From a virus (Duplodnaviria; Heunggongvirae; Uroviricota; Caudoviricetes), in IMG/VR virus record IMGVR_UViG_2579778894_000022: DNA of 32,120 nt; one strand, written 5' to 3'. The notes beneath the pieces were generated by a model. It was not told the origin of the DNA and did not search any database. It saw only the letters and a list, made by a program, of their open reading frames with translations. Positions 14,640-32,120 of the stretch are shown here, in pieces. A program made the position numbers and the translations under genes. Each line of letters opens with the position of its first letter. Position 1 is the first letter of the stretch.

Positions 14640-15955
14640 TTATTCACCTCCACATGCCCCTCCAGTACGTCAATCATCCCGTCAGCAATCGCGGCTTCAA
14701 GCGACTGTGCAGATACGCGGCTGATACTGACCAGCACATCCGCACGGTCATTCTGCCTGCCGACTGTCTGTGATGTTCTGACCACAATCCGGGCCATGCC
14801 GTCACGGGTTGCCACAACATACAGCAACTGGTGGTTCTCCCTGTCCCACAATACCGCCTGTGGTTTTGCCATCAGCGACGGCAGACGCTGTAAATCTTCC
14901 GGTTTCAGGGCGGCATCAGCAGTGGTCGCCAGACTTTTCCCGTTCATCACAAGCAGACGGGCTGGCATATTCCCGGTGCGCTGATGTACGGCTTCAGCTA
15001 CCGATTCCGTCATAAAACCCAGTGCCCGGATTTCATGACCGGTCTGACGTAATCCTGCCAGGCGTTTAAGCCAGAGGGAAAAAGCAAGCTGACGCTCCCG
15101 GCTGTTATTCAGCGTCTGAACAACCTGCTCACGCAACTGCGCGTCGCGAATTTCCACCAGTTTTCGAATCAGTGCCTGATCCGTACCAAATGCCGCCGAA
15201 CCGGGGTTATATGACCAGCCCACATCCGGCGTCATTTTTACCCGACCGTTGTCAAACGTGGTTGACGATGTGCGGAAAATCTCGCCGGTGCTTTCATCCG
15301 TACCGGCATCCACTTCGCGGGTATTCATGAATGACGCACCATAACTGACCTGTAACCCCAGTTCTTTCATGCGGGCCGCAGACAGCGCCCGGACGCGACA
15401 GCGGCAGTTCCAGCCATTGGGCGGGTAATGCGTCTGCCAGAAAATGTCGTCATACCGGAAAACCATATTGTGCAGCCGCGCATGTTCCGGGCGTGTTCTG
15501 CCATCCATAACGGCAATGTACTGCCAGTACGGGTACAAATCGGCGGTATTCATCATCTGCGCATAACGTCCTGCCCCATACGCCGTACGGGTATTGACGT
15601 TATAAATGGTTGCCAGACGACGCGGACTGCCCAGCTCGATTACCTTTGCGTTTCCGTCTGCATCCACGATGATTTGTTTTCCCCACCATCCGAGTTTTTG
15701 CAGCCGGGGGGCCAGTGTGCGGGTAAATTCCTCACGGGTGATGCCTTCACTGACAGCCCGCTCCACTTCCTCACGGATTGTGGTCAGTACATCCATCCGG
15801 GTGGCTTTGGCAACGGTAAAGGCGCGTGCGTGCGCGTCTGCCAGTTGTTCGTACCAGTTCCAGGTGATGTTGTAGCCTTTGGCGCGGAAATACGCGACAG
15901 CCTCCTTTGGCGGGAGGCGTGCGGCATACGCCAGATCAATGGTCTGCTGCGGCAT
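14636..15955 (-). CDS. F: Head morphogenesis protein (minor head protein, SPP1 gp7-like)
   Basis: ATG at 15955 preceded by GGGGG; the GTG at 15991 used by the ORF track has no RBS. 439 aa from this start; follows the portal gene with a short overlap. Confidence 0.75.
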   Translation of the reverse strand: MPQQTIDLAYAARLPPKEAVAYFRAKGYNITWNWYEQLADAHARAFTVAKATRMDVLTTIREEVERAVSEGITREEFTRTLAPRLQKLGWWGKQIIVDADGNAKVIELGSPRRLATIYNVNTRTAYGAGRYAQMMNTADLYPYWQYIAVMDGRTRPEHARLHNMVFRYDDIFWQTHYPPNGWNCRCRVRALSAARMKELGLQVSYGASFMNTREVDAGTDESTGEIFRTSSTTFDNGRVKMTPDVGWSYNPGSAAFGTDQALIRKLVEIRDAQLREQVVQTLNNSRERQLAFSLWLKRLAGLRQTGHEIRALGFMTESVAEAVHQRTGNMPARLLVMNGKSLATTADAALKPEDLQRLPSLMAKPQAVLWDRENHQLLYVVATRDGMARIVVRTSQTVGRQNDRADVLVSISRVSAQSLEAAIADGMIDVLEGHVEVNK

Positions 15956-19723: not shown

Positions 19724-20014
19724 TCATGCACGGGGACGAGGACGCTTGACACCGGCAACGCGGGCACGACCTTCTGCCACATCCTGACCTCGGGAGGTCA
19801 GCGTTACGACATAAAAGCCGCGCAGGTTTTCCACGGTGACCAGTTGCTGCTCTGCCAGCCAGTCAATCTGGCCGCGAACCACATCGCGGGAAACGTTGTG
19901 TCCGTATGCATCCAGACAGTCCTGAAGGATGGATTCGTTTGCTTCGTTATTGCAGTCCATCAGGGAACGCAGGATGACCAGACGACGGTCTTCGGTCAGA
20001 ATATCGTTAATCAT
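19724..20014 (-). CDS. Small winged-helix-like protein (Mu gene 26 position)
   Basis: 96 aa ORF with overlapping stop/start to neighbours. Confidence 0.5.
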   Translation of the reverse strand: MINDILTEDRRLVILRSLMDCNNEANESILQDCLDAYGHNVSRDVVRGQIDWLAEQQLVTVENLRGFYVVTLTSRGQDVAEGRARVAGVKRPRPRA

Positions 20015-20310
20015 GAATTACTCCGGTTTACTGCGTTTTCAAGCAGCAGCTCCAGTTGATGGGAAAATGACTGCACCCGCTGGGACAGCACCCGGATATC
20101 GCCGGACAGCTCTGCAATTCGCAGGCGCATTTCGTGTACATCTTCTGTGCCAGGGATGCTGGCGTAGCGGGTTTCCATTTCGGTCATCCGGTTTTCAAGA
20201 CGCTCCACACGCTCAGTGCTGGCAAAACTACGACGCATTGCCCAGACGGCCCCACCGGCCACAACAGGCAACAGGTAAGGCCATAACGCTAAAACTGAAA
20301 TCAAATCCAT
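20011..20310 (-). CDS. Membrane-anchored coiled-coil protein, candidate lysis regulator (Mu gene 25 position)
   Basis: ATG at 20310 overlaps the upstream stop (TAATG) with GGAG upstream. N-terminal hydrophobic helix LISVLALWPYLLPVVAGGAVWAM followed by a heptad-like charged region. Confidence 0.55.
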   Translation of the reverse strand: MDLISVLALWPYLLPVVAGGAVWAMRRSFASTERVERLENRMTEMETRYASIPGTEDVHEMRLRIAELSGDIRVLSQRVQSFSHQLELLLENAVNRSNS

Positions 20311-20504
20311 TATTCTGCTCCACGGCACCAGTGGCAGTAGTTCGCCATCGGCTGCTGTCTCAGCACATCAGGCCGCAGCTCACGACCGCAACCGGCACAC
20401 AATACAGGCGGGTCATACGCCGCCGGGCGGGGAATATCATGGGTATCCCCCTGCCAGAGTTCAGCGAGCAGCAGCGCCACCGCCCGGTTCTGGTCTTCGT
20501 TCAT
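20310..20504 (-). CDS. Small zinc-finger protein (Mu gene 24 position)
   Basis: 64 aa; C-x2-C ... C-x2-C (CAGCGRE...CHWC); RBS AAGGAAAG upstream of the ATG. Confidence 0.55.
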   Translation of the reverse strand: MNEDQNRAVALLLAELWQGDTHDIPRPAAYDPPVLCAGCGRELRPDVLRQQPMANYCHWCRGAE

Positions 20505-20802
20505 AAATTTCTTTCCTTCGGGTCTCCTGTTCCCGGACTGATGCCTTGTCGCGGTTGCACTGCCCGAGCGCCATCAACAGGTCAGCATTCCAGAGAAGGG
20601 ATGCTCCCCACGTCAGGGGCTGTGGCATGGGCGGAACGGGCGTTGCTTCCGTCAGTTCTGCATCAGTTTCGGGCAGGATCACCACCGATGGCACGGGTGC
20701 GTTTTTCGAGTTCCCGCAACCTGTCAGCAGCAACGGCAGGCACAGGACGAGTGCTGCAATTGTCACCGGTAATGGCGGTTGTAATTTTTTGTTTTGCATC
20801 AT
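20461..20802 (-). CDS. o-spanin (outer-membrane lipoprotein spanin subunit), overlapped with the i-spanin gene
   Basis: Internal ATG-ATG at 20802 inside the i-spanin gene in another frame. Signal peptide with lipobox LLLTGC, then a Pro-rich mature region. 113 aa to the stop; the C-terminal extent is less certain than the start. Confidence 0.55.
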   Translation of the reverse strand: MMQNKKLQPPLPVTIAALVLCLPLLLTGCGNSKNAPVPSVVILPETDAELTEATPVPPMPQPLTWGASLLWNADLLMALGQCNRDKASVREQETRRKEIYERRPEPGGGAAAR

Positions 20803-21049
20803 GATGTTCTGTCTCGTCTGCCAGCCGTGCGGCACGATTTGCGGCACGGATAGCGGAAAATACCTGCATCGTCTGTTCCTGACCGTGTAACAACCATTCA
20901 GCCGTGTGGCGGGCCTGTTGCTCCGTCTGTAATTTACGGCGCAGCGTCTGGTTATCGTGGCGGGTGCTGTCCAGCCTGTGCCACAACACCCCGGACAGAA
21001 CGGCGGCAAACACGGCTGCCAGCAGTAAACTTTTACTGGCGAAGGTCAT
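20663..21049 (-). CDS. i-spanin (inner-membrane spanin subunit, Rz-like)
   Basis: ATG at 21049 overlaps the lys stop with GGGGG upstream. N-terminal transmembrane helix SLLLAAVFAAVLSGVLW then a charged helical periplasmic domain; embedded o-spanin gene. Confidence 0.7.
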   Translation of the reverse strand: MTFASKSLLLAAVFAAVLSGVLWHRLDSTRHDNQTLRRKLQTEQQARHTAEWLLHGQEQTMQVFSAIRAANRAARLADETEHHDAKQKITTAITGDNCSTRPVPAVAADRLRELEKRTRAIGGDPARN

Positions 21050-21552
21050 CCGCCCCCCCTGATATTCCAGATAGCCATTTCCACTTCGCGACGGTTCATC
21101 AGTCCTTTCCATTTATGGCCTGCGGCAAACACCCAGCGGGCCATCTGGTCACGCGCTCCGGCGTAATCACCGGCATTGAGTTTTTTCAGCAGCGTTGATT
21201 TACTGAATGCGGTAACACCGGTGTTGAAAATAAACGTTGCCAGCGCCGTTTTCTGATATGGCGTCAGCGGCACTCTGACAAGACGATCGATTGCCGCATA
21301 AACCGGTTTTAAATCACTGTCGAGAAAAGCCATACACTCCGCATGGCTGTAACGGCGCATTTCGATATCCGGCCCGGTATGTCCCACACAGACCGTAAGC
21401 ACACCGGCAATATCGCGGTAAGGCATATAAGCGATATTTTCCAGATGGATCAGAGACTGACGGGTCATTTCCTGATAACCACCCACACCGCCACCGGCAA
21501 TCGTTGCCGCCAGCAGTGCTGCTTTCAGTTTTTTTGGTATCCCCGCCATCAT
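21046..21552 (-). CDS. lys: SAR endolysin (T4-lysozyme-like, GH24-type)
   Basis: N-terminal weakly hydrophobic Gly/Ala-rich signal-anchor-release segment (KAALLAATIAGGGVGGY) followed by a Glu-8aa-Asp-5aa-Thr catalytic spacing (HLENIAYMPYRDIAGVLT). Confidence 0.85.
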   Translation of the reverse strand: MMAGIPKKLKAALLAATIAGGGVGGYQEMTRQSLIHLENIAYMPYRDIAGVLTVCVGHTGPDIEMRRYSHAECMAFLDSDLKPVYAAIDRLVRVPLTPYQKTALATFIFNTGVTAFSKSTLLKKLNAGDYAGARDQMARWVFAAGHKWKGLMNRREVEMAIWNIRGGG

Positions 21553-21643
21553 GCTTCCCTGAAAAAATGCTCTGATGGCAGTCTAAAAAATCAGATGGCA
21601 GGTGCGGGATTATGGTGACAGGAAATAACCGGCAGGATGCCGG
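21553..21643 (-). promoter_or_regulatory. C-lys intergenic region: candidate middle-transcript terminator and C-dependent late promoter
   Basis: Stem-loop CCGGCA-tcc-TGCCGG plus TTATTT directly after the C stop. Contains the 10-mer AGGTGCGGGA (plus strand 21600..21609) that is also present upstream of I. Confidence 0.5.
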
Positions 21644-22066
21644 TTATTTCAGGCTTTCAGGTGAGAACAGATCAGGCTGATGACGTCGTGTATGCAGCTT
21701 TCTCTGGCGGGCAATAATCTGGTAGATCTGCGGCTGGGACAGGCGATACTGGCGACGCAGTTCTTCCATGTTACGACCATTGAACTGGCAGTAAAGCAAA
21801 TCGTCGCGTAACGCGGTCAGGATCGTATCGCCGCAGGGGATGTAAAACTGCCGCCCGCCCAGAAAACAGGACAGGGCAACGGCCTGTTTACGGGCAAGCT
21901 CACGGGGATTGCTGACGTTCTGGCGTTTCAGTTCGTTTTCCAGAACATCAATCAGATCAACCACCGAACGGGGCCAGCGTGACTCCAGTTCCGGGGCCGG
22001 GATGTTATCAATATGTCCGATTAACTGGCGAATTGCCGGATCGTGTTCAAATAAATCATGCTGCAT
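21644..22066 (-). CDS. C: Late gene transcription activator C (Mor/C family)
   Basis: 140 aa; clear paralogy to Mor visible in the sequence (YIPCGDTILTALRDDLLYCQFNGRNMEELRRQYRLSQPQIYQIIA versus Mor YIPRGQVLDSLIRDLRIWNDFNGRNVHELAIRHGVTFNTVYKAIR); HTH at the C-terminus. Confidence 0.9.
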   Translation of the reverse strand: MQHDLFEHDPAIRQLIGHIDNIPAPELESRWPRSVVDLIDVLENELKRQNVSNPRELARKQAVALSCFLGGRQFYIPCGDTILTALRDDLLYCQFNGRNMEELRRQYRLSQPQIYQIIARQRKLHTRRHQPDLFSPESLK

Positions 22067-22106
22067 ATTTTCCCCCGGTTAACAGACAGAAAGATACACC
22101 ACGGCA

Positions 22107-22337
22107 CTACTGAATTTTCTGTACATGGTATTTTTCTCTGTAACGCCGGCAATGGTGGATAATTTCTGGCATATCAACGGACTGCCAGCCTTTCATGTAA
22201 TAACTTCCGTGGGTGCCATCGTGCCCTGTGTAATCCATTGGCTTTGGTGGTGGGCCTCCGGCCTCCCGATGTAATACCTCCTGTCGTAAACGTTCACGCC
22301 TGCCGAACTGAAAGGACGCATCCCACCCTTTACCCAT
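22107..22337 (-). CDS. Small middle-operon protein, function unknown
   Basis: 76 aa from the ATG at 22337 (GGGAGG 6 nt upstream), overlapping the preceding stop by 8 nt; His/Arg-rich. Confidence 0.45.
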   Translation of the reverse strand: MGKGWDASFQFGRRERLRQEVLHREAGGPPPKPMDYTGHDGTHGSYYMKGWQSVDMPEIIHHCRRYREKYHVQKIQ

Positions 22338-22890
22338 GCAGAACCTCCCGACAGGCGCTGGCGAGCAGATCCAGACGGTTAAACCAGCCATTCAGATATT
22401 TCCCCTGCGAGGCACTGGATTTGATAATCCCTGCGTAATAGCGGGAACGACGCAGGAAGCACTGCAACAGCAGCCAGTCAGTATCGGCACGCAGAACGGC
22501 TGCGCGTGTGTTTTTACCGACGATGCCATCATCATCAACACCTGCTGCCGCCTGGAGGATCTGAATCGCGCGTTTAACACCGTGCTGAACGGCAGCATCA
22601 AAAACGAATAAGGAAACGCCATCAGGCCATTCGTTACACTTTGCCGCCAGCCAGTAATCACGCCAGTAGATCTGCGCCGCCTGCTCGCGGGTTAAATCCT
22701 TAATGCGGGTATCAGGTTTTCCGTCACCGTTAACATCGGTTTTGCCATCAATAACGCCGTCGCGACGGTCAGAAATACCGTATTTCGTTTCGCCGCCACG
22801 GTCGGCAGGATCATTAACATAGCCACCTTCAACATCAGGGCGTATAACGAAATTCAGCGAATGAAGGAATGCAGGGGAAAACTCAGGCAT
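22330..22890 (-). CDS. GH108-family muramidase-like protein with C-terminal peptidoglycan-binding domain (middle operon)
   Basis: N-terminal EGGYVNDPADRGGETKYGI, the signature of glycoside hydrolase family 108 as I recall it, and C-terminal DGIVGKNT...RYYAGI...GW.NR consistent with PG_binding_3. Strong RBS AGGAGGG. First gene after the mor terminator. Confidence 0.75.
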   Translation of the reverse strand: MPEFSPAFLHSLNFVIRPDVEGGYVNDPADRGGETKYGISDRRDGVIDGKTDVNGDGKPDTRIKDLTREQAAQIYWRDYWLAAKCNEWPDGVSLFVFDAAVQHGVKRAIQILQAAAGVDDDGIVGKNTRAAVLRADTDWLLLQCFLRRSRYYAGIIKSSASQGKYLNGWFNRLDLLASACREVLHG

Positions 22891-22946
22891 GTTGCCCTCC
22901 TGTCATGAACGTTTTATCGTCACAACAGAATATTGAGGGCGTAAAA
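22891..22946 (-). promoter_or_regulatory. Candidate middle promoter region (Mor-dependent Pm)
   Basis: Short gap between the mor terminator dyad and the first middle-operon RBS. Promoter assignment is by position and recalled Mu biology, not from a recognisable -35/-10. Confidence 0.4.
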
Positions 22947-22972
22947 AAAGCCGGATTAACCGGCTTTACTGT
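22940..22972 (-). terminator. Rho-independent terminator immediately after mor (end of early transcript); dyad may double as the Mor-binding element
   Basis: Minus strand reads TAA-ACAGT-AAAGCCGG-TTAAT-CCGGCTTT-TTTTTAC: an 8 bp GC-rich stem, 5 nt loop and a 7-U run starting 5 nt after the mor stop. Confidence 0.7.
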
Positions 22973-23362
22973 TTAAAACAAAGGGGGGGAATACTGACGA
23001 TACTTTATACGCCGCATTCGTCGGATGGCTTTATAGACTGTGTTAAATGTCACACCATGACGGATTGCCAGTTCGTGAACATTGCGACCGTTGAAATCAT
23101 TCCAGATACGCAAATCCCGAATAAGCGAATCCAGAACCTGACCGCGTGGAATGTAGACCTGACCGCCGCCCAGATGCTTACAGATAGCCACAACAATCTC
23201 CAGTGAATGGGCCGGGTCAACACCTAACCGGGACAATTCCCCGCGCAGTAAATCGTTCAGCTCCGCCAGCAGTGCCGGAAAGCGTGACGTATCCTCTGCG
23301 GGATTGTCAAGATGTGCCAGGATGGTGTCATCCTGCAAATCACCAAATAAATCTTCCGTCAT
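22973..23362 (-). CDS. mor: Middle operon regulator Mor
   Basis: 129 aa; paralog of C; ATG overlaps the gemA stop; last gene before the early terminator. Confidence 0.9.
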   Translation of the reverse strand: MTEDLFGDLQDDTILAHLDNPAEDTSRFPALLAELNDLLRGELSRLGVDPAHSLEIVVAICKHLGGGQVYIPRGQVLDSLIRDLRIWNDFNGRNVHELAIRHGVTFNTVYKAIRRMRRIKYRQYSPPLF

Positions 23363-23910
23363 TGTGCCATCCTCCGTGTCTTTCTGGCACGGGCATAAGC
23401 CGCCGTCATGGCATCATAGCCGCGCAGTTCACGCCCGGACGGACTGACTGGCAACGGAAGCCCGTGACGGGAAAAGGCTTCACGAATACAGCGGATATGC
23501 CACTGCTTGAGAGTTTCGAGAACAATCAACAGGGTGTCGCCATGACACCACGCCAGCGTGGAAACACCCTGTCCGCCATTACGTTTCGCCGTCAGGCGCT
23601 GAACATATTTATCCAGCGCCACATCACCGCCATCGGTAATAAAACCGTCTTCTGCCATCTGCTGCCAGACTTTGTATACCTTCTCGCGGGGCGTGACATG
23701 CCCCTTAAAGCGGCGACGTGGATGTTTATTCAGCTTCTTAAAGCCGCGTTCTTTCATGGCATCGAGCACCTGTTCCAGTTGCGTAACCGTCAGCTCGCGG
23801 CAACTGATTTTGCCCGTTTTCTGCATCAGAAAAGCGCGGTAAGTGTCGTCGTCGAGTTGTAGCTCCCGACGGGCGACATGGATTAATTTAATCAGGGATG
23901 TGCGATTCAT
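23359..23910 (-). CDS. gemA: GemA-like early protein (host gene expression modulation)
   Basis: 183 aa ORF immediately upstream of mor with GGAGG 7 nt before the ATG; position matches Mu gemA. Confidence 0.75.
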   Translation of the reverse strand: MNRTSLIKLIHVARRELQLDDDTYRAFLMQKTGKISCRELTVTQLEQVLDAMKERGFKKLNKHPRRRFKGHVTPREKVYKVWQQMAEDGFITDGGDVALDKYVQRLTAKRNGGQGVSTLAWCHGDTLLIVLETLKQWHIRCIREAFSRHGLPLPVSPSGRELRGYDAMTAAYARARKTRRMAQ

Positions 23911-24184
23911 GATCGTACCTCCGGAAAGAGGCGGTGCTGCAACACCGCCTGAATTTACACATCAATCAGAGAGGATTTTATGGAAAATAATGTACAACCT
24001 TATGATGTTGCAGGTTATGCGATTGCATCAGCACTGGTGCGCCTTCTGGTGAAGAAGGCGATCATCACCGCAGAAGAGGGCCAGGCCATTTTCAGCTCTT
24101 CAGCAGAGATTTTAAAAGATGCGCCTGCAATAAGAACAAGCCGCCGCGAAAACATGCAACTGTCAAAGATCATGGAAGACATTA

Positions 24185-24487
24185 TCAGTTCGTTAGACCC
24201 AGATGCTGACGGATCTCAAAAGCCTCAAACACATGAGCGTCAGTAACAATATCCTGGTCTGATAACCCCAGCCTGCGGCGGATGTACTCCTCGCGGGCTG
24301 TTTCATTTTGCAGTGCCACTACTGTTTCCAGACGATTCATTTCGCGGTTGATAATGTCACGGACTTCTCTGGCGGTGAGATTATGCTTAATACCATATTC
24401 AACGATAGCGCGAACACGTTCCAGCATCCCTTTTTCAGCCATGACGTTATCAATATTAAGGGGAGTAAATTTATCTTCATTGTTCAT
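24185..24487 (-). CDS. Semi-essential early region protein, function unknown
   Basis: 100 aa; ATG overlaps the upstream stop (ATGA). Confidence 0.6.
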   Translation of the reverse strand: MNNEDKFTPLNIDNVMAEKGMLERVRAIVEYGIKHNLTAREVRDIINREMNRLETVVALQNETAREEYIRRRLGLSDQDIVTDAHVFEAFEIRQHLGLTN

Positions 24488-24792
24488 TTTGCGGCCCTCA
24501 GAATAAATTCAGGATAAAATTTCAGACTCATTTGCCGTAACACATCCAGTGCAGCAACGGCTGCTGATTTATCGTTGCCATCAGCAATAGCGCGGAGATT
24601 TTCAATAATCCAGTGAGGACTCAGTGACTCAGCAATAATGCCAAACCGGTACGCCATGACCTCATCAATAGCTTTTTCATGAGACGGCTCATATACAAAA
24701 TTCACAAAGTCATGCACTTCTTTTTTCGGCAAACCACCGGCAATCAGCAGGGCGGCAAGCTCTTCTGATTTTGAAAATACACCATTATTCAT
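24484..24792 (-). CDS. Semi-essential early region protein, function unknown
   Basis: 102 aa from the ATG at 24792, 1 nt after the upstream stop with a GGTGA RBS; the ORF track's GTG at 24807 lacks an RBS. Confidence 0.55.
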   Translation of the reverse strand: MNNGVFSKSEELAALLIAGGLPKKEVHDFVNFVYEPSHEKAIDEVMAYRFGIIAESLSPHWIIENLRAIADGNDKSAAVAALDVLRQMSLKFYPEFILRAAK

Positions 24793-24793
24793 G

Positions 24794-24976
24794 TCACTCA
24801 CCTTCACAATTCATGCACGCCGTGTCATCGCCCATATCGCAGTGGTTACATTTCTGCCCGCCACAATGAGGGCACTCTTTCAGATATTCAGGGGATTCAT
24901 TACCGCAGGTCGGGCATTCCTGTTTCACCGTGGTAAATTTCCCCAGCCACGAATACGATGTTTCATTGTTTTCCAT
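24794..24976 (-). CDS. Small zinc-ribbon protein with four CxxC motifs
   Basis: 60 aa containing CPTC, CPHC, CNHC, CMNC; GGAGG 7 nt upstream of the ATG. Confidence 0.6.
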   Translation of the reverse strand: MENNETSYSWLGKFTTVKQECPTCGNESPEYLKECPHCGGQKCNHCDMGDDTACMNCEGE

Positions 24977-25493
24977 TGTTTACCTCCGCCTGTTTTTGCG
25001 CCCGGATAAATTCGTCAGAAAGGATTTCAGTCATGCGGCCCTGTGCGGGAGTCATCCCTGTCATGACGTAAATCACATCACCAACACGGAACCACCGGAG
25101 CGGGCCGAATATTGTTGCGCTGAAATCCAGTCCCAGTGCGGGTAAGAGAGCGTCAGTACGGGCATAAGTGACCGGAATATTCTCCTGCCATATTTTCGCC
25201 AGCTCTTTTGACTGCTCCCGCAGATGTGCAGGAATGCGCGATGTTCTTGGCCTGCAACTGTTACCTGATGCGGGCCGTTGTACGGTCCACAGCTCCGGCG
25301 AGAAAGGTCGCTCATTCCCCGGAAAATTCACGCCATGAAAATGACGCCCACCAATACCTGTGCTGAATACTGACCGGCAACCACAACCCAGAACCTTATC
25401 AAGATGGCGGGCTTCTTCGCGTAGTTTCAGGCAGTCCGCCATAAACTGGTCCCATGCCAGCAGTGCTGCGGGATTTGACGTTTTAAAAAACAT
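24963..25493 (-). CDS. Semi-essential early region protein, function unknown
   Basis: 176 aa from the ATG at 25493 (overlaps upstream stop as TGATG; AGGAGG 7 nt upstream). Confidence 0.6.
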   Translation of the reverse strand: MFFKTSNPAALLAWDQFMADCLKLREEARHLDKVLGCGCRSVFSTGIGGRHFHGVNFPGNERPFSPELWTVQRPASGNSCRPRTSRIPAHLREQSKELAKIWQENIPVTYARTDALLPALGLDFSATIFGPLRWFRVGDVIYVMTGMTPAQGRMTEILSDEFIRAQKQAEVNNGKQ

Positions 25494-26023
25494 CACGCCA
25501 CCTCCTGCATCGTTGCGGGAACCGGAGAACAATCAAGAATGAGATAACGCAGTACATGGTCGGTGATATTCCAGGCGCTTGAACTGCAAATAAAACGCCC
25601 CAGCCGGATATCGATATAAGCCATCACAAAACGGGGCATTCCCTGTTCGCACATTTCGTCATCCACTTCCGCAACGATGTAAACCGACTCGCAGGTCAGT
25701 ACGCCTGTTGCAAATTCTTTTGCCAGTGCCGGAATGGCATTGCCTTCCAGCCAGGGCAATGAGCGGCGGAAGGAACACCATGCGGCATCATCAACAGCAG
25801 GCTGCTCAGTTGCGTTTCGTCTTACAGGCGGCGTCGGACGCGGGCGCGGAACGTCATAAAATCCGTTGCATTCGGTGAGCACTCCGGCATCAACCGCATC
25901 ACGCAGGAAATACACCATTGACGAGGGCAGCATATTCATTTTTTCAGCCAGAACTCCGCAGGTCAGGCGTCCGTAAGCCCGTAATAATGTGCTGACACCA
26001 TTCAGAATTTTTGCATCAACCAT
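25493..26023 (-). CDS. Semi-essential early region protein, function unknown
   Basis: 176 aa; GAGGAA RBS; first gene after a ~100 bp AT-rich intergenic gap. Confidence 0.6.
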   Translation of the reverse strand: MVDAKILNGVSTLLRAYGRLTCGVLAEKMNMLPSSMVYFLRDAVDAGVLTECNGFYDVPRPRPTPPVRRNATEQPAVDDAAWCSFRRSLPWLEGNAIPALAKEFATGVLTCESVYIVAEVDDEMCEQGMPRFVMAYIDIRLGRFICSSSAWNITDHVLRYLILDCSPVPATMQEVA

Positions 26024-26121
26024 GTTTTATTCCTCAGTAATCTGTTTCAGGCGCGAGCAATCCCCTGACGTATCGCGCCATAATTAAAAGAATGTGAATT
26101 AATTAAATATTAATGGTGGTA

Positions 26122-26646
26122 TTAAATACCGGCTTCCTGTTCAAATGGAATAATAGAAAAATCCTCAATGCCTGATTTAACTGTAATTCCGGCAACACCT
26201 GCGACCGCTTTCGGTTCCAGTAAAATCGCTTCCTTGTTGATTTCCTGCTTCGTGCGAATAAAGCGTTGCAGGCCAAGACGCTCCAGCGTTTCCATCACTG
26301 CATCCATACCACGAATACTTACTGATGGTGGACGTACCCGCCACGATACATCTCCGGTGACAAGATTCGCCGTCTTCACTTTGCCGCCGTTCGTCAGTTC
26401 GTCGCGGTTCGCTTCACACCATCCCTGAACGCCTTTTGAAAGGGTTTCAATATCGGTTTTAATCGGTGCAATCCGGGCCGCAAATTTCTCCGTAATTTCC
26501 GCGATGGCATCATTCATTTCCGTTTCCAGACGTGATGCTTCGCGCTGTAAATCCCCGATGCGTTTAATATCGGTAATCACCGCATCGCGGTTTTGTGGCA
26601 CATAAGCCGCTGCGGCACTCTTGATACGTTTTGCTGGTTTAGCCAT
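26122..26646 (-). CDS. gam: Gam, DNA-end-binding host-nuclease inhibitor (Ku-like)
   Basis: 174 aa (MAKPAKRIKSAAAAYVPQNRDAVITDIKRIGDLQREASRLETEMNDAIAEITEKFA...), recognised as Mu Gam by size, sequence and position. Confidence 0.85.
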   Translation of the reverse strand: MAKPAKRIKSAAAAYVPQNRDAVITDIKRIGDLQREASRLETEMNDAIAEITEKFAARIAPIKTDIETLSKGVQGWCEANRDELTNGGKVKTANLVTGDVSWRVRPPSVSIRGMDAVMETLERLGLQRFIRTKQEINKEAILLEPKAVAGVAGITVKSGIEDFSIIPFEQEAGI

Positions 26647-26665
26647 AAATTAAAGCTCCTGTTAA

Positions 26666-26965
26666 TTAATATCCGCTGTATACAATGCTGGATACAGCTC
26701 GATTGCTTAATTCCATCTTTCGGGCAATGACATGAATATCCAGTCCTTCTTTATAAAGTTCACGACATAAATATTTGTCGTGTTCACTGATTCGGTATAC
26801 ACACAATGATATTCCGTGCCTTCTGGCATGTGCCCGGAGGGCGGTTGTGGCGACTTTCAGTTTTTCCGCCATTTCTTCAATGGTCATTTTCCCGACGTTG
26901 GCTTCGATAAATTCCCGGTCTTCGCGTGACCAGCGCTTACGATTACACTTCATGTCAGTCACCAT
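26666..26965 (-). CDS. Small putative DNA-binding (HTH-like) early protein
   Basis: 99 aa, or 95 aa from the internal ATG at 26953 which has a better RBS (GGTGA); helix-turn-helix-like segment MTIEEMAEKLKVATTALRAHARRHGIS. Confidence 0.55.
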   Translation of the reverse strand: MVTDMKCNRKRWSREDREFIEANVGKMTIEEMAEKLKVATTALRAHARRHGISLCVYRISEHDKYLCRELYKEGLDIHVIARKMELSNRAVSSIVYSGY

Positions 26966-27385
26966 TCAGTACAGCAGAGGCTCGCGCAGTGATGCCGGAA
27001 TATGTCGCAGCGATAACTGAACCGCTTTCAGGGCAAGCGAGGAATAACAGCAGCGCGCCCAGCCTTTTGCCATTAACCGGTAATCGCGCCAGATACGCTG
27101 CCACATTTCACGGGCTTCAGGGTCTGATGCGCAGATGTATTCCCGGTCCATGACGTACTCCCATAAATCCACGTTGAACGCACCGCCAAATGCAATGGCG
27201 CGGGATATGCTTTCGCCGCAATAACGCGCACAGATGCTGTAATGGTCGAAAGCGATCAGGTACGTCTTTTCACCACAATCATCAACTTTCCTGGCGCAAA
27301 TAAACTCGCGTAATTCACCACCGTTGTTATTGCGTTCCTGAATTCGGATTAATGCCTGAATTTCATTTCGGATTTTGACGTTCAT
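26966..27385 (-). CDS. Cys-rich early protein, function unknown
   Basis: 139 aa with several Cys and aromatic residues. Confidence 0.55.
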   Translation of the reverse strand: MNVKIRNEIQALIRIQERNNNGGELREFICARKVDDCGEKTYLIAFDHYSICARYCGESISRAIAFGGAFNVDLWEYVMDREYICASDPEAREMWQRIWRDYRLMAKGWARCCYSSLALKAVQLSLRHIPASLREPLLY

Positions 27386-27405
27386 TGTCAGCGTTCCTTT
27401 GCGAA

Positions 27406-27675
27406 TTAATGTTTAACCGCATTCACCGGATGTGGTACTAAATCACATTCAGCTTCCATACCCACTTTCTTCATAGTGGTCAGCATCTCATCTTTGGCCT
27501 TTTTAATAATTTCAGGAGCCATAGTCAGGACGATATTTGCCAGTAAATCATGAGGCCCGGTATTTTCCGTTGGCGAGATATCTGCAAGACATGCTTTTGC
27601 ATCCAGAACTTCTCTGCGCCCATTGCAACTGTCACTACTTTCCAGCCATGTAAACTCAAAGATAACCTTTGCCAT
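27406..27675 (-). CDS. Semi-essential early region protein, function unknown
   Basis: 89 aa ORF with short intergenic spacers on both sides. Confidence 0.55.
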   Translation of the reverse strand: MAKVIFEFTWLESSDSCNGRREVLDAKACLADISPTENTGPHDLLANIVLTMAPEIIKKAKDEMLTTMKKVGMEAECDLVPHPVNAVKH

Positions 27676-27695
27676 TTTTCTTCTCCTTATTGATT

Positions 27696-27917
27696 CTAAA
27701 TAACTGCGCTGGCTTTTACCTTCGCGCCTTTTACCTGCTTAAAGAAAACTGCGCTGCACCACGGACAACATGTCAGGGAATCCCAAATTTCCTTTTCGGG
27801 TGAGCATTGCGTCATAATCTGTTCACCGCATCCGGGGCATTTATATGTCGTCAGCGGCACCCCGTGGCACTGACAGTGTTTAACCCATTCAATATATTTT
27901 TCAGCTTTAATACACAT
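27696..27917 (-). CDS. Small Cys-rich (zinc-ribbon-like) early protein
   Basis: 73 aa from the ATG at 27917, 2 nt after the kil stop with GGAGA upstream (the ORF track uses a TTG at 27941). Motifs CQCHG, CPGCG, CCPWC. Confidence 0.55.
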   Translation of the reverse strand: MCIKAEKYIEWVKHCQCHGVPLTTYKCPGCGEQIMTQCSPEKEIWDSLTCCPWCSAVFFKQVKGAKVKASAVI

Positions 27918-27919
27918 CG

Positions 27920-28147
27920 TTATCTCCAGATAATCTGGCAACCATTAAGACGGGCCGTCCATACAGAACGGGCCACCCCGGACTTATGCTCCATAATTCT
28001 GACCGCGCTTTTTACCAGTTCCACCGGTGGGTAAGTGATTTCAAGAATCGGACGCGCCACGCCGAGATATGATTCATTTACATGACTCCCGCGCGCCTGT
28101 AACCAGTTCTGCGCATCCGTTGCCATTTTTATATTTCGGGCCATCAT
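27920..28147 (-). CDS. kil: Kil (host killing / cell-division inhibition protein)
   Basis: 75 aa ORF directly downstream of B with an AAGGAG RBS; size and position match Mu kil. Confidence 0.75.
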
Positions 28148-28162
28148 AATTTCTTCTCCTTC

Positions 28163-29101
28163 TTAATTACGCAGCAGCGTTGAAATATCAACGTCCAGGT
28201 CTAATTCACGGAAAGCCTGACGCAGATAATCTTCGTTAACACGCTCACCTTTACCGTGAGCCGTCATGGCGGCAAGGCGAAGTGAATGATTCAGAATGCG
28301 AAGCGCACCTGGTTTCTGCGCAATCTGCTGTAATAACTCCAGTTCTTTTTCACCGTTAATCTGCCAGGCATCCGCAATAGCTTTTACATCGGCTTTTTTG
28401 GTTTTATTAATTGCAGTGCGCTTTGCAATACGGGAAAACAGACGGGCAAATTCAACCGTTCTGTTACCCCCCGTCATATTTGAATAAACCCGGTGATTTC
28501 CCATCAGCACAAGGCCAGTGCGGGTTGATTCCTGTAACAGGCGGAGTTCTTCCAGAACCTCGGCACCAAGATGATCAGCTTCGTCGATGATAACCAGCCC
28601 CTGTGTACCTTCAAGGCGACGTCGCAGGGCGCGGGAGAGCGGCCCTTTACGGCGTGGTGCGTCATTCATTCCCAGCTCAAACGCCAGTTCAGTAAGACAT
28701 TCCAGAACGCTGGCACAGGATGGCGTAATGGTGATCATCCAGACATTGTTATTGGTGCGGCGATATTCACGGGCCGCTTCGGTTTTGCCCACACCAGGAT
28801 TGCCACATACAACAGCAATACTTTCAGTCAGGCTGGCAAAACGCATACTTGTCCAGATTTGTTTTACCGTCTGCGTTTCCACAAAGCGGGGCGGTTCAGG
28901 TAGTTCTGCAACTGCATGATATTTTTCCAGCCAGCGTTGCAGAATTTGTGAAACACGCTCGTTATCCCCGTTGTACTTATCATTGATAAAACTACTGATA
29001 GTTCCGGTAGAAAGCCCGCTCTCAAGAGCAATTTGTTTAAAGGTGGTTTCTTCATTTTCTACAAGCGTGCGCAGTCCTGCGCGAATATCGGAAATATTCA
29101 T
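28163..29101 (-). CDS. B: Transposition target-DNA activator MuB (AAA+ ATPase)
   Basis: 312 aa; Walker A GNPGVGKT; Walker B/DExx in LVIIDEADHL; N-terminal HTH; immediately downstream of the transposase. Confidence 0.93.
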   Translation of the reverse strand: MNISDIRAGLRTLVENEETTFKQIALESGLSTGTISSFINDKYNGDNERVSQILQRWLEKYHAVAELPEPPRFVETQTVKQIWTSMRFASLTESIAVVCGNPGVGKTEAAREYRRTNNNVWMITITPSCASVLECLTELAFELGMNDAPRRKGPLSRALRRRLEGTQGLVIIDEADHLGAEVLEELRLLQESTRTGLVLMGNHRVYSNMTGGNRTVEFARLFSRIAKRTAINKTKKADVKAIADAWQINGEKELELLQQIAQKPGALRILNHSLRLAAMTAHGKGERVNEDYLRQAFRELDLDVDISTLLRN

Positions 29102-29139
29102 CTGAATAACCTCGTAATTAAATTTTGTTTAAACGTTAA

Positions 29140-31131
29140 TTAAATGGCTTTTTTACGTCTGTTCTGTTCCAGAATATCCAGCGAATGATTCAGATATTCA
29201 TCACGCTCAGTTTCGTATTCATCATCACGCTCCTGATTCTTCACCCGTTCCATATTACCGGAAGGCCGGAAAATGCCGACAATTCGTGATTCTGGTGCTT
29301 CAGGTTCGGCTATCTGCGGCAGCAGCTCTGCCACTTCCAGTGCATCCATTTGTTTCTGTGCCTTAATCGCTGCTTTCGTCGCAGATTTCAGTTGTTTCTG
29401 GCGGCGGCGATATTCACGGCCTGCCGCAGCATCATTAAACGCAACAGGTGACAGACATTCCGCTTCACAGATAAACCGACCGTCCAGGGTGTAGCAATAA
29501 ACCGTGCTGTGTAACTGCTGTGGATCAAATCTGACCACAACTTTTTTCACTCCGGCATTCATTAACGCCATATTGTAATAAACGTTTTTCGCACCTTTAA
29601 GGGAGCCGCCAACTTTAAGCGCGAACTCGCCTTTACGTGAAACGTTCACCGCCTCGGCAGGCAGTAACAGCATCCGTTTTTGCTCTTCGGTAGGCTTACG
29701 CACAATCGTTCTGGCGTATTCACGCTCAAAAACGTCATCAAACGAAAGTTTGCCTCCGCACATTTCTGTTTCACGGCCTGTTCTGGCATTGAACATCGCC
29801 ACACCTTCGGCAAGGGTTTTCAGAAACAGCTCTGCATCAACAGCGCGGTCGCCATAGTTATCAGGTTTTGCCTGCGGATTAGGCCCCGTATATGCACCAG
29901 CCAGTGCCGGATGCTTATCAACGTATTCCTCAAGCCCACCAACACCGAAAGCACGTTCAACAGGTTTTGCCTGGCCCCAGCCTTTACCAGCAACAACGCT
30001 TGTCCAGTGCATTTTCGCACCCATCAGTAAAAACAGTCCTTTTGGATCGTCCTCTTTTACCTTAAAGCGGTAGCGATTGGGCGCGCCTCCCGTCAGCCAT
30101 TTATTCGCAGCACCACGGGTGTTATCAATGGTGATGTGAAAATCCTCCGGGATACCGTAGCGAGTCACAACATCCATGAACGAGAGGCGAATTGAATCAA
30201 TGTTCTCGCTCACATCGCAGCGCCAGCCCAGAATTTTTCGGGTTTTCACATCCTGCCAGAACCATGTTTTCGGACGGATCACATCACCGTTAAACCAGCG
30301 TACAAAGACGTTATGCAGATAACCGTCGCCGTTGATCCACTGCATGGCGTCCAGGTGTTCCACAGTTCGCTGCTGTGCCGGTATCAGATGCATCAGTGCA
30401 TGTTCACCTTCACGACAGGCAACAACCATTGCCTCGTCCAGTTGCTGAATCCGGCGAAAGGCCGTGGCACGGGAGGGAATACTCCAGCCATGCTCGCGGG
30501 CTGCCAGTTCCAGACGCTCATAACATTTGCGGAAGGCGGGTTTTTCCGGTCGCAGATAATCTGCAATCAGAAACTGCCAGGCATCCTCGTCAAATTCACT
30601 TTTGTGAACGTTGCGACGGGATGCACCACGTCCATCAACAAGCGCAGCCGCCCAGTCAGGCTTCGCAAACTTCTGTACCTGGTAATACTTGTCCCGCAAA
30701 GTGGATGCGCTGACCTGGTAATGCCCTGCAACGGTCGCAAAAGCCGTTTTTGTTGAAATCCCCTGGTTCAGCATTTCGTCTGCAGCCTGAACCGCAGGCA
30801 ACCATTTTTCAGCAAGTCTGCGCTGGGAATCGCTGGCGTTATCCCATTTGCTCCACAGTGCCTCACGATCATAATCATGGGCTTCCAGCGTGGGGCGGGC
30901 GATTTCAAAATACCCCAGGCTTGTTTCAATCTCTCCTTGTCTCAGCAATAACGCCGCTTTCGCTTCAACAGGTAAAGAGTTCGCATTGTATTCAATTGCT
31001 TTACCACCTTTGACACCTGCTCTAGTGCGGTTTTGCCATCCTTGCTTTTTAGCAACATAAATCACACCAGCCGATGTTTTCGGCAAACCAGGAAGATTCG
31101 CACACTCTTTCGGTGATACCCAAAGTTCCAT
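29140..31131 (-). CDS. A: DDE transposase MuA
   Basis: 663 aa from the ATG at 31131 ([32 protein letters not shown]...), which I recognise as the MuA N-terminus. The enhancer-binding N-domain is homologous to repressor c. The ORF track's GTG start 3 codons upstream was not used. Confidence 0.93.
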
Positions 31132-31132
31132 G

Positions 31133-31360
31133 TTATTCACCTGCTTGATATCGGCTAGGCCAGATTACTTCCGGTTTAGTTTCTAAGGCGTTAGCAATAA
31201 TCTGCTCACCCTTTGGCCAGTGTCGTTCTAGCGCATTAGCTAATGTAGTTGGCGCATAACCAAACTGCCGGGAAAGAGCTGATAAAGAGAGCTTTCTTTT
31301 CTTAAGTCCCGCAATCACATCCGCACGATGCCAATCACGGGCCTTTTCGTTGGAACACAT
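31133..31360 (-). CDS. ner: Ner, early negative regulator (small HTH DNA-binding protein)
   Basis: 75 aa; [24 protein letters not shown]; RBS TAGGAGGG; stop 1 nt before the A start. Confidence 0.9.
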
Positions 31361-31529
31361 TTAAAAACCCTCCTAAGTTTTGTAATCTATAAAGTTAGCA
31401 ATTTAACTAAGTGTAAAAACTTAGCTAGCTTGCTAAAAAGATAATTACTGAAAAGCTTTTTGTAAAGCTGCTTTTTAGTAAATTCCTTTGATTACTGATT
31501 AACGCATTGATAAATAAAGGATTTAAATT
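31361..31529. promoter_or_regulatory. Divergent c/ner control region: repressor operators, early promoter (minus strand) and repressor promoter (plus strand); in Mu this region also acts as the transposition enhancer
   Basis: 169 bp AT-rich gap between divergent genes. Multiple CTTTT-type repeats on both strands between ~31425 and 31485 (for example GCTTTTTGTAAAGCTGCTTTTTAGTAAA). One IHF-consensus match, TATCAATGCGTTA on the minus strand, at 31500..31512. Confidence 0.7.
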
Positions 31530-32120
31530 TTGAAAAGTAACTTTATAGAAAAGAGCAATACTGAAAAGTCAATTTGGTGTTCGCCGCAAGAAATTATGGC
31601 TGCTGATGGTATGCCTGGATCTGTTGCTGGTGTTCACTATCGAGCAAATGTTCAAGGCTGGACGAAGCGGAAAAAGGAAGGTGTCAAGGGGGGGAAAGCT
31701 GTTGAATACGATGTGATGTCGATGCCCACCAAAGAACGAGAGCAAGTTATTGCGCACTTGGGGTTATCCACACCGGATACTGGTGCTCAAGCCAATGAGA
31801 AACAGGATTCTTCGGAACTGATAAACAAATTAACCACAACCTTAATCAATATGATTGAAGAGTTGGAACCAGATGAAGCACGCAAGGCACTGAAACTTTT
31901 AAGTAAAGGGGGGTTGTTGGCGTTAATGCCTCTTGTATTTAATGAACAGAAACTTTACAGCTTTATAGGATTTTCACAGCAAAGTATTCAGACGTTGATG
32001 ATGCTAGATGCATTACCTGAAGAAAAACGCAAAGAGATTTTGTCAAAGTATGGGATTCATGAACAGGAAAGTGTTGTAGTACCTTCACAGGAACCACAGG
32101 AGGTAAAAAAAGCCGTATAA
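31530..32120 (+). CDS. c: Repressor c (lysogeny repressor)
   Basis: 196 aa; TTG start with AAGGA 9 nt upstream and an in-frame stop 2 codons before it. N-terminal DNA-binding domain visibly homologous to the MuA N-terminal domain. The stop codon is the last 3 nt of the window. Confidence 0.9.
   Translation: MKSNFIEKSNTEKSIWCSPQEIMAADGMPGSVAGVHYRANVQGWTKRKKEGVKGGKAVEYDVMSMPTKEREQVIAHLGLSTPDTGAQANEKQDSSELINKLTTTLINMIEELEPDEARKALKLLSKGGLLALMPLVFNEQKLYSFIGFSQQSIQTLMMLDALPEEKRKEILSKYGIHEQESVVVPSQEPQEVKKAV

Follow-up and report, generated by a model that had tools for sequence, protein, structure and literature searches.

Genes at the locus

The window, by which we mean the whole 32,120-nucleotide stretch analyzed here (IMG/VR virus record IMGVR_UViG_2579778894_000022, Caudoviricetes), is about 98% identical by blastn to Escherichia phage Mu outside one cassette, and all of the features discussed below lie on its minus strand. 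In the direction of transcription, mor (22973..23362), encoding the activator of Pm (Pfam Mor, E=6e-30; ~95% nucleotide identity to Mu), is followed by a Pm-homologous segment (22925..22980). According to the Mu annotation, the alignment and the blastn breakpoints, this segment corresponds to Mu 9163-9218 of the annotated 9163-9233, and it holds the Mor-site dyad AAAGCCGGTTAATCCGGCTTT with a T-run at 22943-22967. The first gene behind this conserved element (22330..22890) begins with ATG, is preceded at a distance of 5 nt by the Shine-Dalgarno sequence AGGAGGG (22895..22901, read from the sequence), and encodes a 186-aa protein that open reading frame, profiles and fold mark as a GH108/PG_binding_3 muramidase. 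Its stop overlaps the start of a gp18 homologue (ATGGGTAA) of 76 aa (22107..22337), which carries the precomputed annotation PF26867 Phage_Mu_gp18. There follow a 15-codon remnant of gp20 (22079..22126), whose transmembrane segment has been taken out by a 72-bp in-frame deletion, and the late-gene activator C (21644..22066; Pfam Mor, E=9e-34, and Mu annotation), which is the last gene of the middle unit.

Downstream lies the Mu-type SAR endolysin gp22 (21046..21552; GH24, Phage_lysozyme, Pfam E=2e-37), which is 98% identical to Mu gp22 and has E37, D46 and T52 in place. It is followed by the i-spanin gp23 (20663..21049), an embedded o-spanin at about 20461-20802, and a block at 20011..20504 encoding the zinc-finger protein gp24 (20310-20504) and the DUF2730 releasin gp25 (20011-20310); the roles of gp22, gp24 and gp25 are those given in PMC9239132. 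The GH108 and lys starts are 1.34 kb apart. The initial annotation had correctly placed mor and C, the GH108 gene as the first of the Mor-dependent unit, and a separate SAR endolysin about 1.3 kb downstream of it.

The hairpin behind mor, in contrast, had been read as a mor terminator, and it is instead the dyad that the Mu annotation assigns to the Mor-activated Pm. A terminator scan did not return the Pm dyad among its results, and a scan for sigma-70 promoters over 21500-23100 came back empty, a result that says little about Pm because this promoter depends on an activator. Four lineages conserve the dyad, together with the Pm sequence downstream of it, right upstream of GH108, and the dyad is directly upstream of GH108 in the SE11, PSS-15 and Klebsiella prophages as well. 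We infer from this arrangement that the timing of GH108 expression would depend on Pm.

The GH108 protein

Both GH108 family profiles, PF05838 and PF09374, pass their curated cut-offs in the 186-aa protein. Glyco_hydro_108 covers the catalytic domain at aa 20-104 (22579..22833; 87.4 bits, E=9e-25, cut-off 21.2), in agreement with the alignment to SagA, and PG_binding_3 covers aa 107-173 (22372..22572; 52.3 bits, E=7e-14, cut-off 24.6). PHROG 315, "endolysin", matches at E=1e-51, and an NCBIfam search found no family above cut-off. Sequence matches in the PDB are 2IKB, 7DNP, 2NR7 and 6V3Z. An AF2 model (pLDDT 82.6, pTM 0.83) has the two-lobed, all-helical clamp fold consisting of a hydrolase lobe and a PG-binding helical bundle, with low confidence at aa 21-50, the catalytic loop, and its top Foldseek matches are 7DNP, 2IKB, 2NR7, 6V3Z and 6V40 (SagA, NMB1012, 2NR7 and TtsA), all with probability 1.00.

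The motif EGGYVNDPADRGGETKYGI is present in the protein, and the residues E21, D30 and T35 (codons 22828-22830, 22801-22803 and 22786-22788) align with the catalytic Glu17, Asp26 and Thr31 of SagA, the EGGY motif being E21-G-G-Y24. The Glu/Asp/Thr triad and the DAP pocket residues have been named for SagA (PMC8334348). All three triad positions are invariant across 33 homologues, as are the DAP pocket residues D121, G125 and T128 in the C-terminal domain, and N-acetylmuramidase activity is predicted for the protein. The initial annotation had proposed a GH108-type protein with a C-terminal domain of the peptidoglycan-binding type, to be checked by the conservation of the catalytic Glu in the EGG motif and by a lysozyme-like fold; the profiles bear out the two domains, the homologues show the Glu to be conserved, and the predicted structure agrees. 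By these comparisons, 22330-22890 is an intact gene for a predicted peptidoglycan-cutting enzyme, an expected member of a well-known family. We also considered an embedded out-of-frame gene, a hydrophobic open reading frame of 47-53 codons at 22692-22835, and rejected it; the frame is open only in close E. coli copies and closed in PSS-15/MOD1, and in Klebsiella neither its start nor its hydrophobicity is conserved.

A loop rich in Asp and Gly (aa 41-60, DRRDGVIDGKTDVNGDGKPD; 22711..22770), containing a DxNxDGxxD motif, had been described as looking slightly longer than in other family members. The length difference holds, since the loop D41-D60 exceeds its counterparts in SagA and NMB1012 by 6-12 residues and amounts to a 14-residue insertion relative to the Mu-like GH108 homologues of Vibrio, Shewanella and Xenorhabdus. 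The loop is not confined to this protein. From the alignments it is a conserved insertion of the enterobacterial clade, in which 11 of its residues are invariant (D41, R43, D44, G45, D48, G49, D52, G55, D56, P59 and D60), and in P. gingivalis 2NR7 an equivalent loop, DKDGDGDIDVED, places DxDxDGxxD at the same position. The stretch D52-V-N-G-D56-G-K-P-D60 fits the pattern D-x-[DN]-x-D-G-x-x-D, also invariant in the clade, and the AF2 model forms a hairpin in the loop, with pLDDT of about 81 at aa 51-60. Motifs of the DxDxDG type are tied to calcium binding in EF-hand and integrin FG-GAP loops, and the Asp/Gly loop resembles such a Ca2+-binding loop, making it a putative Ca site. The protein is a further member of the GH108-PG3 class to which ElyA1 belongs, and its putative Ca-binding loop is conserved.

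The GH108 protein has neither a signal sequence nor a SAR or transmembrane segment (maximum Kyte-Doolittle 19-mer score 0.93); its N-terminus MPEFSPAFLHSLNFVIRPDVEGGY has no hydrophobic segment and runs directly into the catalytic motif, leaving no SAR domain of the N4 gp61 type. The protein is therefore a muramidase of the cytoplasmic type. A search for a holin candidate in this phage was likewise negative, with no homologue of the ~200-aa holin-like protein (hol200) or of the 4TM protein and with gp20 deleted, so that the window offers the enzyme neither a SAR or signal sequence nor a partner holin as a route to the periplasm.

The endolysin position in Mu-like phages

We compared the locus with 25 Mu-like prophage loci from other Gammaproteobacteria in species-representative genomes. 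In all 25, the gene order is gemA-mor-GH108-gp18-(4TM)-~200-aa holin-like protein-zinc finger-DUF2730, and Klebsiella and Escherichia prophages share this order, as do Mu-like phages of Shewanella and Vibrio that form plaques. Neither C nor a GH24 lysozyme was found in any of the 25 loci, and thus the GH108 protein, their sole peptidoglycan hydrolase, is the endolysin there; the window adds gp22. The ~200-aa membrane protein is a candidate holin by sequence, with sub-threshold GTA_holin_3TM matches in four of five orthologues (17-21 bits; cut-off 24.8). Published assignments agree, as the GH108 gene directly after mor in Mannheimia phage 3927AP2 is named "lys" (PMC4553209), and for Vibrio phages with DUF2730 the cytoplasmic endolysin is given as GH108 (PMC9239132 Table S1).

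The site directly after mor and Pm is accordingly where Mu-like phages canonically have their endolysin, contrary to the initial annotation, which had considered a hydrolase at this location unexpected. What sets the Mu lineage apart is the C-SAR-lysozyme-spanin block, not the GH108 site, and the one unusual thing about this family member is that its phage carries Mu's own lysis enzyme as well. The comparison also places the start of the canonical Mu-like lysis module directly behind mor and makes Mu gp18-gp20 part of it.

A mosaic cassette and apparent selection on GH108

By blastn, an 816-bp cassette consisting of the GH108 gene and a divergent gp18 stands in the window in place of Mu gp18-gp19-gp20. 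The GH108 gene has no counterpart in Mu, and the gp18 homologue is 78% identical to Mu gp18 at the nucleotide level, compared with ~98% identity in the flanks; gp18 came in together with GH108. Homology between Mu gp19 and the 4TM protein (135 aa) encoded in type-A cassettes is tentative at best, with BLASTP E values no lower than 0.03-0.1 and the two in different PHROGs.

The mosaic pattern is consistent with an intact but idle gene, recombined in from a GH108-using Mu-like lineage, separated from its membrane partners and left with no lysis role, all lysis being carried out by the SAR endolysin, releasin and spanins. The missing holin-like gene, the missing gp19 and the truncated gp20 fit such a history, as does the finding that Mu lyses without GH108 and does not need its genes 18-21 to do so (PMC9239132). 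The GH108-gp18 cassette is, furthermore, present in just 8 of 5426 complete E. coli genomes. The condition of the gene argues the other way. No frameshifts or stops were found in GH108 in six E. coli copies or two phage copies, the gene still has its strong Shine-Dalgarno sequence and its translational coupling to gp18, and the plaque-forming Yersinia phages vB_YpM_5/6 retain the gene, with a product 100% identical to that of the window. Compared with prophage elppa5, in which the SAR endolysin is intact, the GH108 gene of the window shows 13 synonymous and no nonsynonymous differences; compared with SE11, it shows 23 and 2 (dN/dS 0.024), giving 36 synonymous against 2 nonsynonymous differences for these two dual-lysozyme prophages combined. 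The dN/dS value relative to type-A homologues is about 0.15. On these counts the GH108 gene appears to be under strong purifying selection, although the low dN/dS could stem from selection in related GH108-dependent prophages, such as those of the SE11 type, and subsequent recent recombination, and not from selection in this genome; the GH24 homologue of the SE11 type is without its catalytic Glu. We regard an idle gene as possible, if somewhat unlikely.

The GH108 gene is still annotated as a hypothetical protein in vB_YpM_5/6, and the paper describing these phages makes no mention of a lysozyme or hydrolase. Their entry in the Mu lysis paper lists PF00959 only, and this gene is not counted as a lysin in the table of endolysin-releasin pairs of Mu-like phages (PMC9239132). 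The gene would best be named GH108 N-acetylmuramidase or endolysin.

Probable function of the second muramidase

The explanation that we favor, and consider probable, is that the GH108 protein is enzymatically active and serves as an accessory endolysin, which derives from the lysis module common to Mu-like phages and works beside the SAR endolysin gp22. Of the three functions suggested initially, a secondary lysin is the best supported. The protein would be a soluble N-acetylmuramidase, the endolysin of a module, found directly behind mor in most Mu-like phages, that comprises GH108, gp18, membrane proteins, the zinc-finger protein and DUF2730, with the GH108-gp18 pair representing a mosaic cassette at its canonical place within an otherwise Mu-identical genome that has C, Plys, the SAR endolysin and spanins. 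Mor would activate Pm, and a single transcript would then yield GH108, gp18 and C, the first two by coupled translation. The folded enzyme would build up harmlessly in the cytoplasm and gain access to murein only upon a breach of the inner membrane, whereupon Glu21/Asp30/Thr35 would cleave MurNAc-GlcNAc bonds while the C-terminal domain grips the DAP-type stem peptide. Because Mu is holin-less and its gp25 is not hole-forming and showed no lethality (PMC9239132), the enzyme might contact the wall only after the cell has burst. The route of the protein to the periplasm is, above all, the part of this explanation that we infer.

A broader scenario would take Mu gp18, gp19 and gp20 as the remains of an ancestral GH108-holin cassette into which the C-Plys-SAR endolysin-spanin block was inserted. 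The dual-lysozyme Muviruses would then be living intermediates in which GH108 is still selected, perhaps exported by the DUF2730 "releasin" and/or gp18 and not by a holin. We consider this scenario quite unlikely.

Export of GH108 by gp25 (DUF2730), with or without gp18, would in itself make one releasin serve both a SAR and a soluble endolysin, and GH108 would be a full co-endolysin instead of a late helper. In each of the 25 Mu-like loci a DUF2730 gene does follow GH108 at a distance of 2-4 genes, Chamblee et al. note pairs of DUF2730 proteins and cytoplasmic endolysins, and gp18 is always the next gene after GH108 and is fused to a holin-like protein in PHROG 2121. The ~200-aa membrane protein with weak GTA_holin_3TM similarity, usually present in the 25 loci, is nevertheless a simpler export candidate, the findings on Mu gp25 cited above speak against export by this protein, and gp25 of the window shares no more than 25-29% identity with those DUF2730 proteins that are paired with GH108; we therefore judge such export very unlikely. 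If it did occur, by way of DUF2730 or gp18, the DUF2730 proteins would be general endolysin-release factors with a function beyond SAR release.

Least probable of all, and highly unlikely in our view, is a non-lytic role as a dead peptidoglycan-binding factor, a virion- or entry-associated enzyme, or a TtsA/SagA-like secretion muramidase benefiting the lysogen: the family members TtsA and SagA do work in secretion and the gene is outside the late lysis cluster, but the invariant triad and the apparent purifying selection contradict the inactive factor that had been suggested, the entry-associated enzyme finds no support in a gene that is neither in the structural module nor fused to a virion protein and whose orthologues are the sole lysins of their phages, and secretion is opposed by a lytic-cycle promoter dependent on Mor, from which expression in lysogens is not expected, and by a score of 71 bits against a cut-off of 240 for NCBIfam NF040573 (holin-associated/type 10 secretion muramidase, TtsA-like) in what is a Mu-like phage context.

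The comparison shows that natural Muviruses exist with two predicted muramidases from different families and with different export logic. Such phages are suited to two questions, namely whether DUF2730 proteins act on soluble endolysins and why a second lysin is kept under selection.

Comparison with known systems

The best sequence and fold matches, Brucella SagA (7DNP), Neisseria NMB1012 (2IKB), Salmonella TtsA (6V40) and P. gingivalis 2NR7, are 22-32% identical to the GH108 protein and share its Glu/Asp/Thr triad and DAP pocket, but they are chromosomal, secretion-associated or uncharacterized proteins from outside any phage lysis module. Coliphage N4 gp61, the founding member of GH108, has in common with it the catalytic family and the EGGY motif, with muramidase activity being that of gp61; gp61 has an N-terminal SAR domain, which the protein of the window lacks, and its partners are both a pinholin and a holin (bioRxiv 10.1101/2025.11.12.688109).

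Closer relatives are the GH108 endolysins of Mu-like phages (3927AP2 "lys", Vibrio 1.028.O and others, Shewanella MuM16-2, Klebsiella Kp4866-3), with 43-72% full-length identity. These share with the window the two domains, the site after mor, the absence of a secretion signal, a gp18 homologue as the next gene, and zinc-finger and DUF2730 proteins further downstream. They have the ~200-aa holin-like membrane protein and neither C nor a second lysozyme, whereas the window has C, the SAR GH24 endolysin and spanins and is without the holin-like gene; the Vibrio, Shewanella and Xenorhabdus versions also lack the 14-residue Asp/Gly insertion. Escherichia phage Mu has no GH108; its middle operon is gp18-gp19-gp20-C, and its lysis system comprises the SAR endolysin gp22, the spanins gp23/23.1 and the releasin gp25. 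Relative to Mu, the window is without gp19 and has a truncated gp20 and a divergent gp18 allele (78%). Common to both are Pm, C, Plys, gp22, the spanins, gp24 and gp25.

GH108 domains and fold

The 186-aa product of the gene at 22330-22890 (minus strand) belongs to the GH108 family and carries a C-terminal peptidoglycan-binding domain, as the initial annotation had proposed from motifs: it scores far above the curated cut-offs of Pfam Glyco_hydro_108 (87.4 bits, over aa 20-104) and PG_binding_3 (52.3 bits, over aa 107-173), and it matches PHROG 315, 'endolysin', with E=1e-51. A sequence search of the PDB returned NMB1012 (2IKB/2IS5, 1e-20), Brucella SagA (7DNP, 2e-17), P. gingivalis 2NR7 and the Salmonella TtsA family. 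The only significant Foldseek matches to an AlphaFold2 model (pLDDT 82.6, pTM 0.83, with aa 21-50 weak) are these same structures, and the predicted fold is thus of the GH108 type as well.

In SagA, the T4-lysozyme-like catalytic residues are Glu17, Asp26 and Thr31, and a DAP pocket has been described (PMC8334348). Their counterparts here, E21, D30 and T35, together with the pocket residues D121/G125/T128, are unchanged throughout an alignment of 33 homologues with identity down to 64%, so the catalytic Glu, singled out earlier for checking, is invariant. No hydrophobic N-terminal segment was found in the protein, which is therefore predicted to be a soluble, cytoplasmic-type muramidase.

The Asp/Gly-rich loop had been thought slightly longer than in other family members, and indeed D41-D60 exceeds the equivalent loops of SagA and NMB1012 by 6-12 residues and forms a clean 14-residue insertion relative to Mu-like GH108 proteins of Vibrio, Shewanella, Xenorhabdus, Marinomonas and Rheinheimera; 2NR7 has DKDGDGDIDVED at this site. 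Judging from the alignment, the loop is not peculiar to the window copy but shared with enterobacterial homologues, 11 positions being invariant in Escherichia, Klebsiella, Citrobacter, Serratia, Pectobacterium and related homologues. Its residues D52-x-N-x-D56-G-x-x-D60 match the DxDxDG or integrin-type Ca2+-loop pattern, and the stretch is modeled as a hairpin with reasonable confidence, so that a putative structural metal site is plausible. A conserved Ca-site-like insertion in the enterobacterial GH108 clade is, we think, mildly new. The Vibrio, Shewanella, Marinomonas and Rheinheimera proteins (comparison loci L014, 3950-4534; L015, 3956-4516; and L040-L044), which lack the loop, have an EGGY motif split by a 6-13-residue insertion, for example EEGALNQDGTPKPNLGYVNDP.

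Gene order and mosaicism

Read on its minus strand, the window is the genome of a Mu-type phage, sharing about 98% identity with Escherichia phage Mu over 36-22108 and most of 22925-32120. Within the region of interest, Yersinia phages vB_YpM_5/6 are 98.7-99.3% identical to it and the E. coli WS1933D prophage 99.9%. The GH108 gene follows gemA (23359-23910) and mor (22973-23362) and precedes a 76-codon ORF (22107-22337), a 15-codon gp20 remnant (22079-22126), C (21644-22066), the SAR endolysin gp22 (21046-21552), the spanins (about 20461-21049), gp24 (20310-20504) and the releasin gp25 (20011-20310), all on the minus strand. The 76-codon ORF encodes a Mu gp18 homologue of PHROG 2121, and BLASTP still recovers its similarity to the versions from Vibrio and Shewanella (E=1e-10).

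An 816-bp cassette (22109-22924) stands where Mu has 9219-9920. Its gp18 is only 78% identical to that of Mu at the nucleotide level while the flanks are 95-98% identical, and the cassette is therefore a recombinational mosaic. It occurs in 8 of 5426 complete E. coli genomes, where PGAP names the product 'glycoside hydrolase family 108 protein'; at equal search sensitivity, another 8 of the 5426 match the gp18 part only. In the E. coli prophages and Muvirus phages compared, the order after mor is gp18-gp19-gp20-C-lys in Mu, gp18-gp20-C-lys in vB_YpM_3, GH108-gp18-gp19-...-C-lys in elppa5, GH108-gp18-gp20-C-lys in vB_YpM_5/6, WS1933D and FDAARGOS_1059, GH108-gp18-Δgp20-C-lys in the window, and GH108-gp18-gp19-gp20-C-(GH24 homologue) in SE11 and TUM9757.

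Other differences were seen nearby. An in-frame deletion of 72 bp between direct repeats (TCAGTG) has cost the window gp20 (compare 15038-15157 in locus L010) its transmembrane segment; the closest relatives, vB_YpM_5 and WS1933D, retain an intact 39-codon gp20, unannotated in their records. The SAR endolysin, 168 aa from the first Met, ends in ...WNIRGGG (21046-21060, minus strand) where Mu gp22 ends in ...WNIRGADDLRQ, a difference inside the overlap with the i-spanin start. In the early region, other stretches (24490-24783 and 27400-27656) are also mosaic replacements with respect to Mu. An opposite-strand 88-codon ORF upstream of gemA (23980-24246, plus strand), hypothetical in the vB_YpM_5 and WS1933D annotations, stands where Mu has Mu_54.

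The location of the gene had been considered unexpected, but directly behind mor is its normal Mu-like site. Context look-ups for the top matches (64-75% identical Enterobacterales proteins) revealed a recurrent order: gemA, mor, an optional small gene, GH108, gp18, in some cases a 4TM protein, a membrane protein of ~200 aa, a TraR/DksA zinc-finger protein (gp24 position), DUF2730 (gp25), gp26, gp27 and terminase. Prophages of Klebsiella and Escherichia share this order with plaque-forming Mu-like phages of Shewanella and Vibrio, and it recurs in 25 of 25 Mu-like loci from species-representative genomes of eleven genera. A second Mor-family gene (C) and a GH24 lysozyme are both missing from every Mu-like locus with this order, which leaves GH108 as the sole peptidoglycan hydrolase there. 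True Muviruses have an extra block of C, Plys, SAR GH24 endolysin and spanins between the gp18-gp20 genes and gp24.

Expression

The hairpin between mor and the GH108 gene (22943-22967), a dyad AAAGCCGGTTAATCCGGCTTT followed by a T-run, had been read as the mor terminator. A terminator is also predicted there in Mu, but the hairpin sits within the Mu-annotated Pm, the Mor-activated middle promoter, and is thus part of Pm too. Homology to Mu continues through the Pm element up to Mu 9218 and then ends, the annotated promoter extending 15 nt further. The element lies directly upstream of GH108 in E. coli SE11 and PSS-15 as well, and even in a Klebsiella prophage that has a 170-codon gene between the element and mor. 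Because of this conserved element, the ribosome-binding site (AGGAGGG) and the overlap of the GH108 stop with the next start (ATGGGTAA), the predicted Mor-dependent transcription of GH108 together with C is well supported by conservation. The dyad and T-run (also at about 5915-5950 in locus L004) are nearly invariant among distant Mu-like prophages, AAGCCGGT[TA]AATCCGGCTTTTTTTA, and travel with GH108, not mor, where the extra 170-codon gene intervenes.

Selection and possible roles

GH108 is intact in all copies examined. By Nei-Gojobori counts, the window and SE11 genes differ by 23 synonymous and 2 nonsynonymous changes (dN/dS 0.024), and the window and elppa5 genes, each in a genome with an intact SAR endolysin, by 13 and 0. 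Against the 72-74% identical type-A proteins, dN/dS is about 0.15, close to mor and gemA. Intact copies and low dN/dS argue against a decaying relic or a catalytically dead binding protein.

In SE11 (locus L012, 2550-2978) and TUM9757 (L018, 1041-1469), the GH24 homologue downstream of C has Ala at the position of gp22 Glu37, the change used experimentally to inactivate gp22 (PMC9239132); it is truncated to 142 aa, has a lipobox-like LAAC at its N-terminus, and is followed by no spanin genes. These prophages may therefore depend on GH108, possibly their sole active muramidase, and the selection argument carries a caveat, as recombination could pass a well-kept allele on to genomes that have no need of it.

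We probably have an active muramidase serving as an accessory endolysin. A soluble endolysin would be harmless while cytoplasmic, and its middle expression would therefore pose no problem. Once gp22, gp25 and spanin action had compromised the inner membrane, GH108 would contribute further murein degradation, and its DAP-binding domain might give it a different substrate preference. The main rival, that the intact gene is only a passenger in this genome, without a role, seems rather unlikely to us. As to export, a way out of the cytoplasm is missing: the holin-like and 4TM genes are absent from the window and its gp20 has no membrane segment. Experiments have shown that Mu lacks a holin, that its gp19, gp20 and gp25 are not lethal upon depolarisation, and that lysis does not require genes 19 and 20 (PMC9239132). 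Release mediated by DUF2730 and/or gp18 would be more interesting but is quite improbable. The role of DUF2730 in phages with cytoplasmic endolysins was explicitly left open by Chamblee et al. (PMC9239132). A non-lytic role as virion enzyme, secretion helper or dead binding protein has essentially no support.

Comparison with known systems

The endolysin family is a known one, of which the GH108 gene is an ordinary member already named accordingly in RefSeq. The coexistence of two muramidases in one Muvirus seems not to have been remarked previously, as the published table of Mu-like endolysins gives the GH24 enzyme alone for vB_YpM_5/6 (PMC9239132) and the paper describing these phages makes no mention of a lysin of any kind. 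That bona fide Muviruses combine two muramidases, and do so under purifying selection, is mildly novel.

Homologues of gp18 (window 22107-22337, minus strand; L004 6585-7796) always follow GH108, from Vibrio through Escherichia. In the PHROG 2121 profile, positions 3-75 correspond to gp18 and 88-272 to the ~200-aa holin-like membrane protein, which means that the two also occur fused. The ~200-aa protein, which repeatedly matches GTA_holin_3TM, always below threshold, is the obvious if unproven holin candidate. The constant linkage and the fusions hint that Mu gp18 is part of the lysis machinery.

The founder of the family, N4 gp61, has been shown to be a SAR endolysin (bioRxiv 10.1101/2025.11.12.688109), from which the window protein differs in having no hydrophobic N-terminus. 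Closer parallels are Mannheimia phage 3927AP2, in which mor (gene 18) is followed by gene 19, 'lys', encoding a GH108+PG_binding_3 protein (PMC4553209), and nine Vibrio phages in which GH108 is a cytoplasmic endolysin paired with DUF2730 (PMC9239132 Table S1). We infer, as a further mildly new point, that the genes of the Mu middle operon form the leading end of an older lysis cassette based on GH108.
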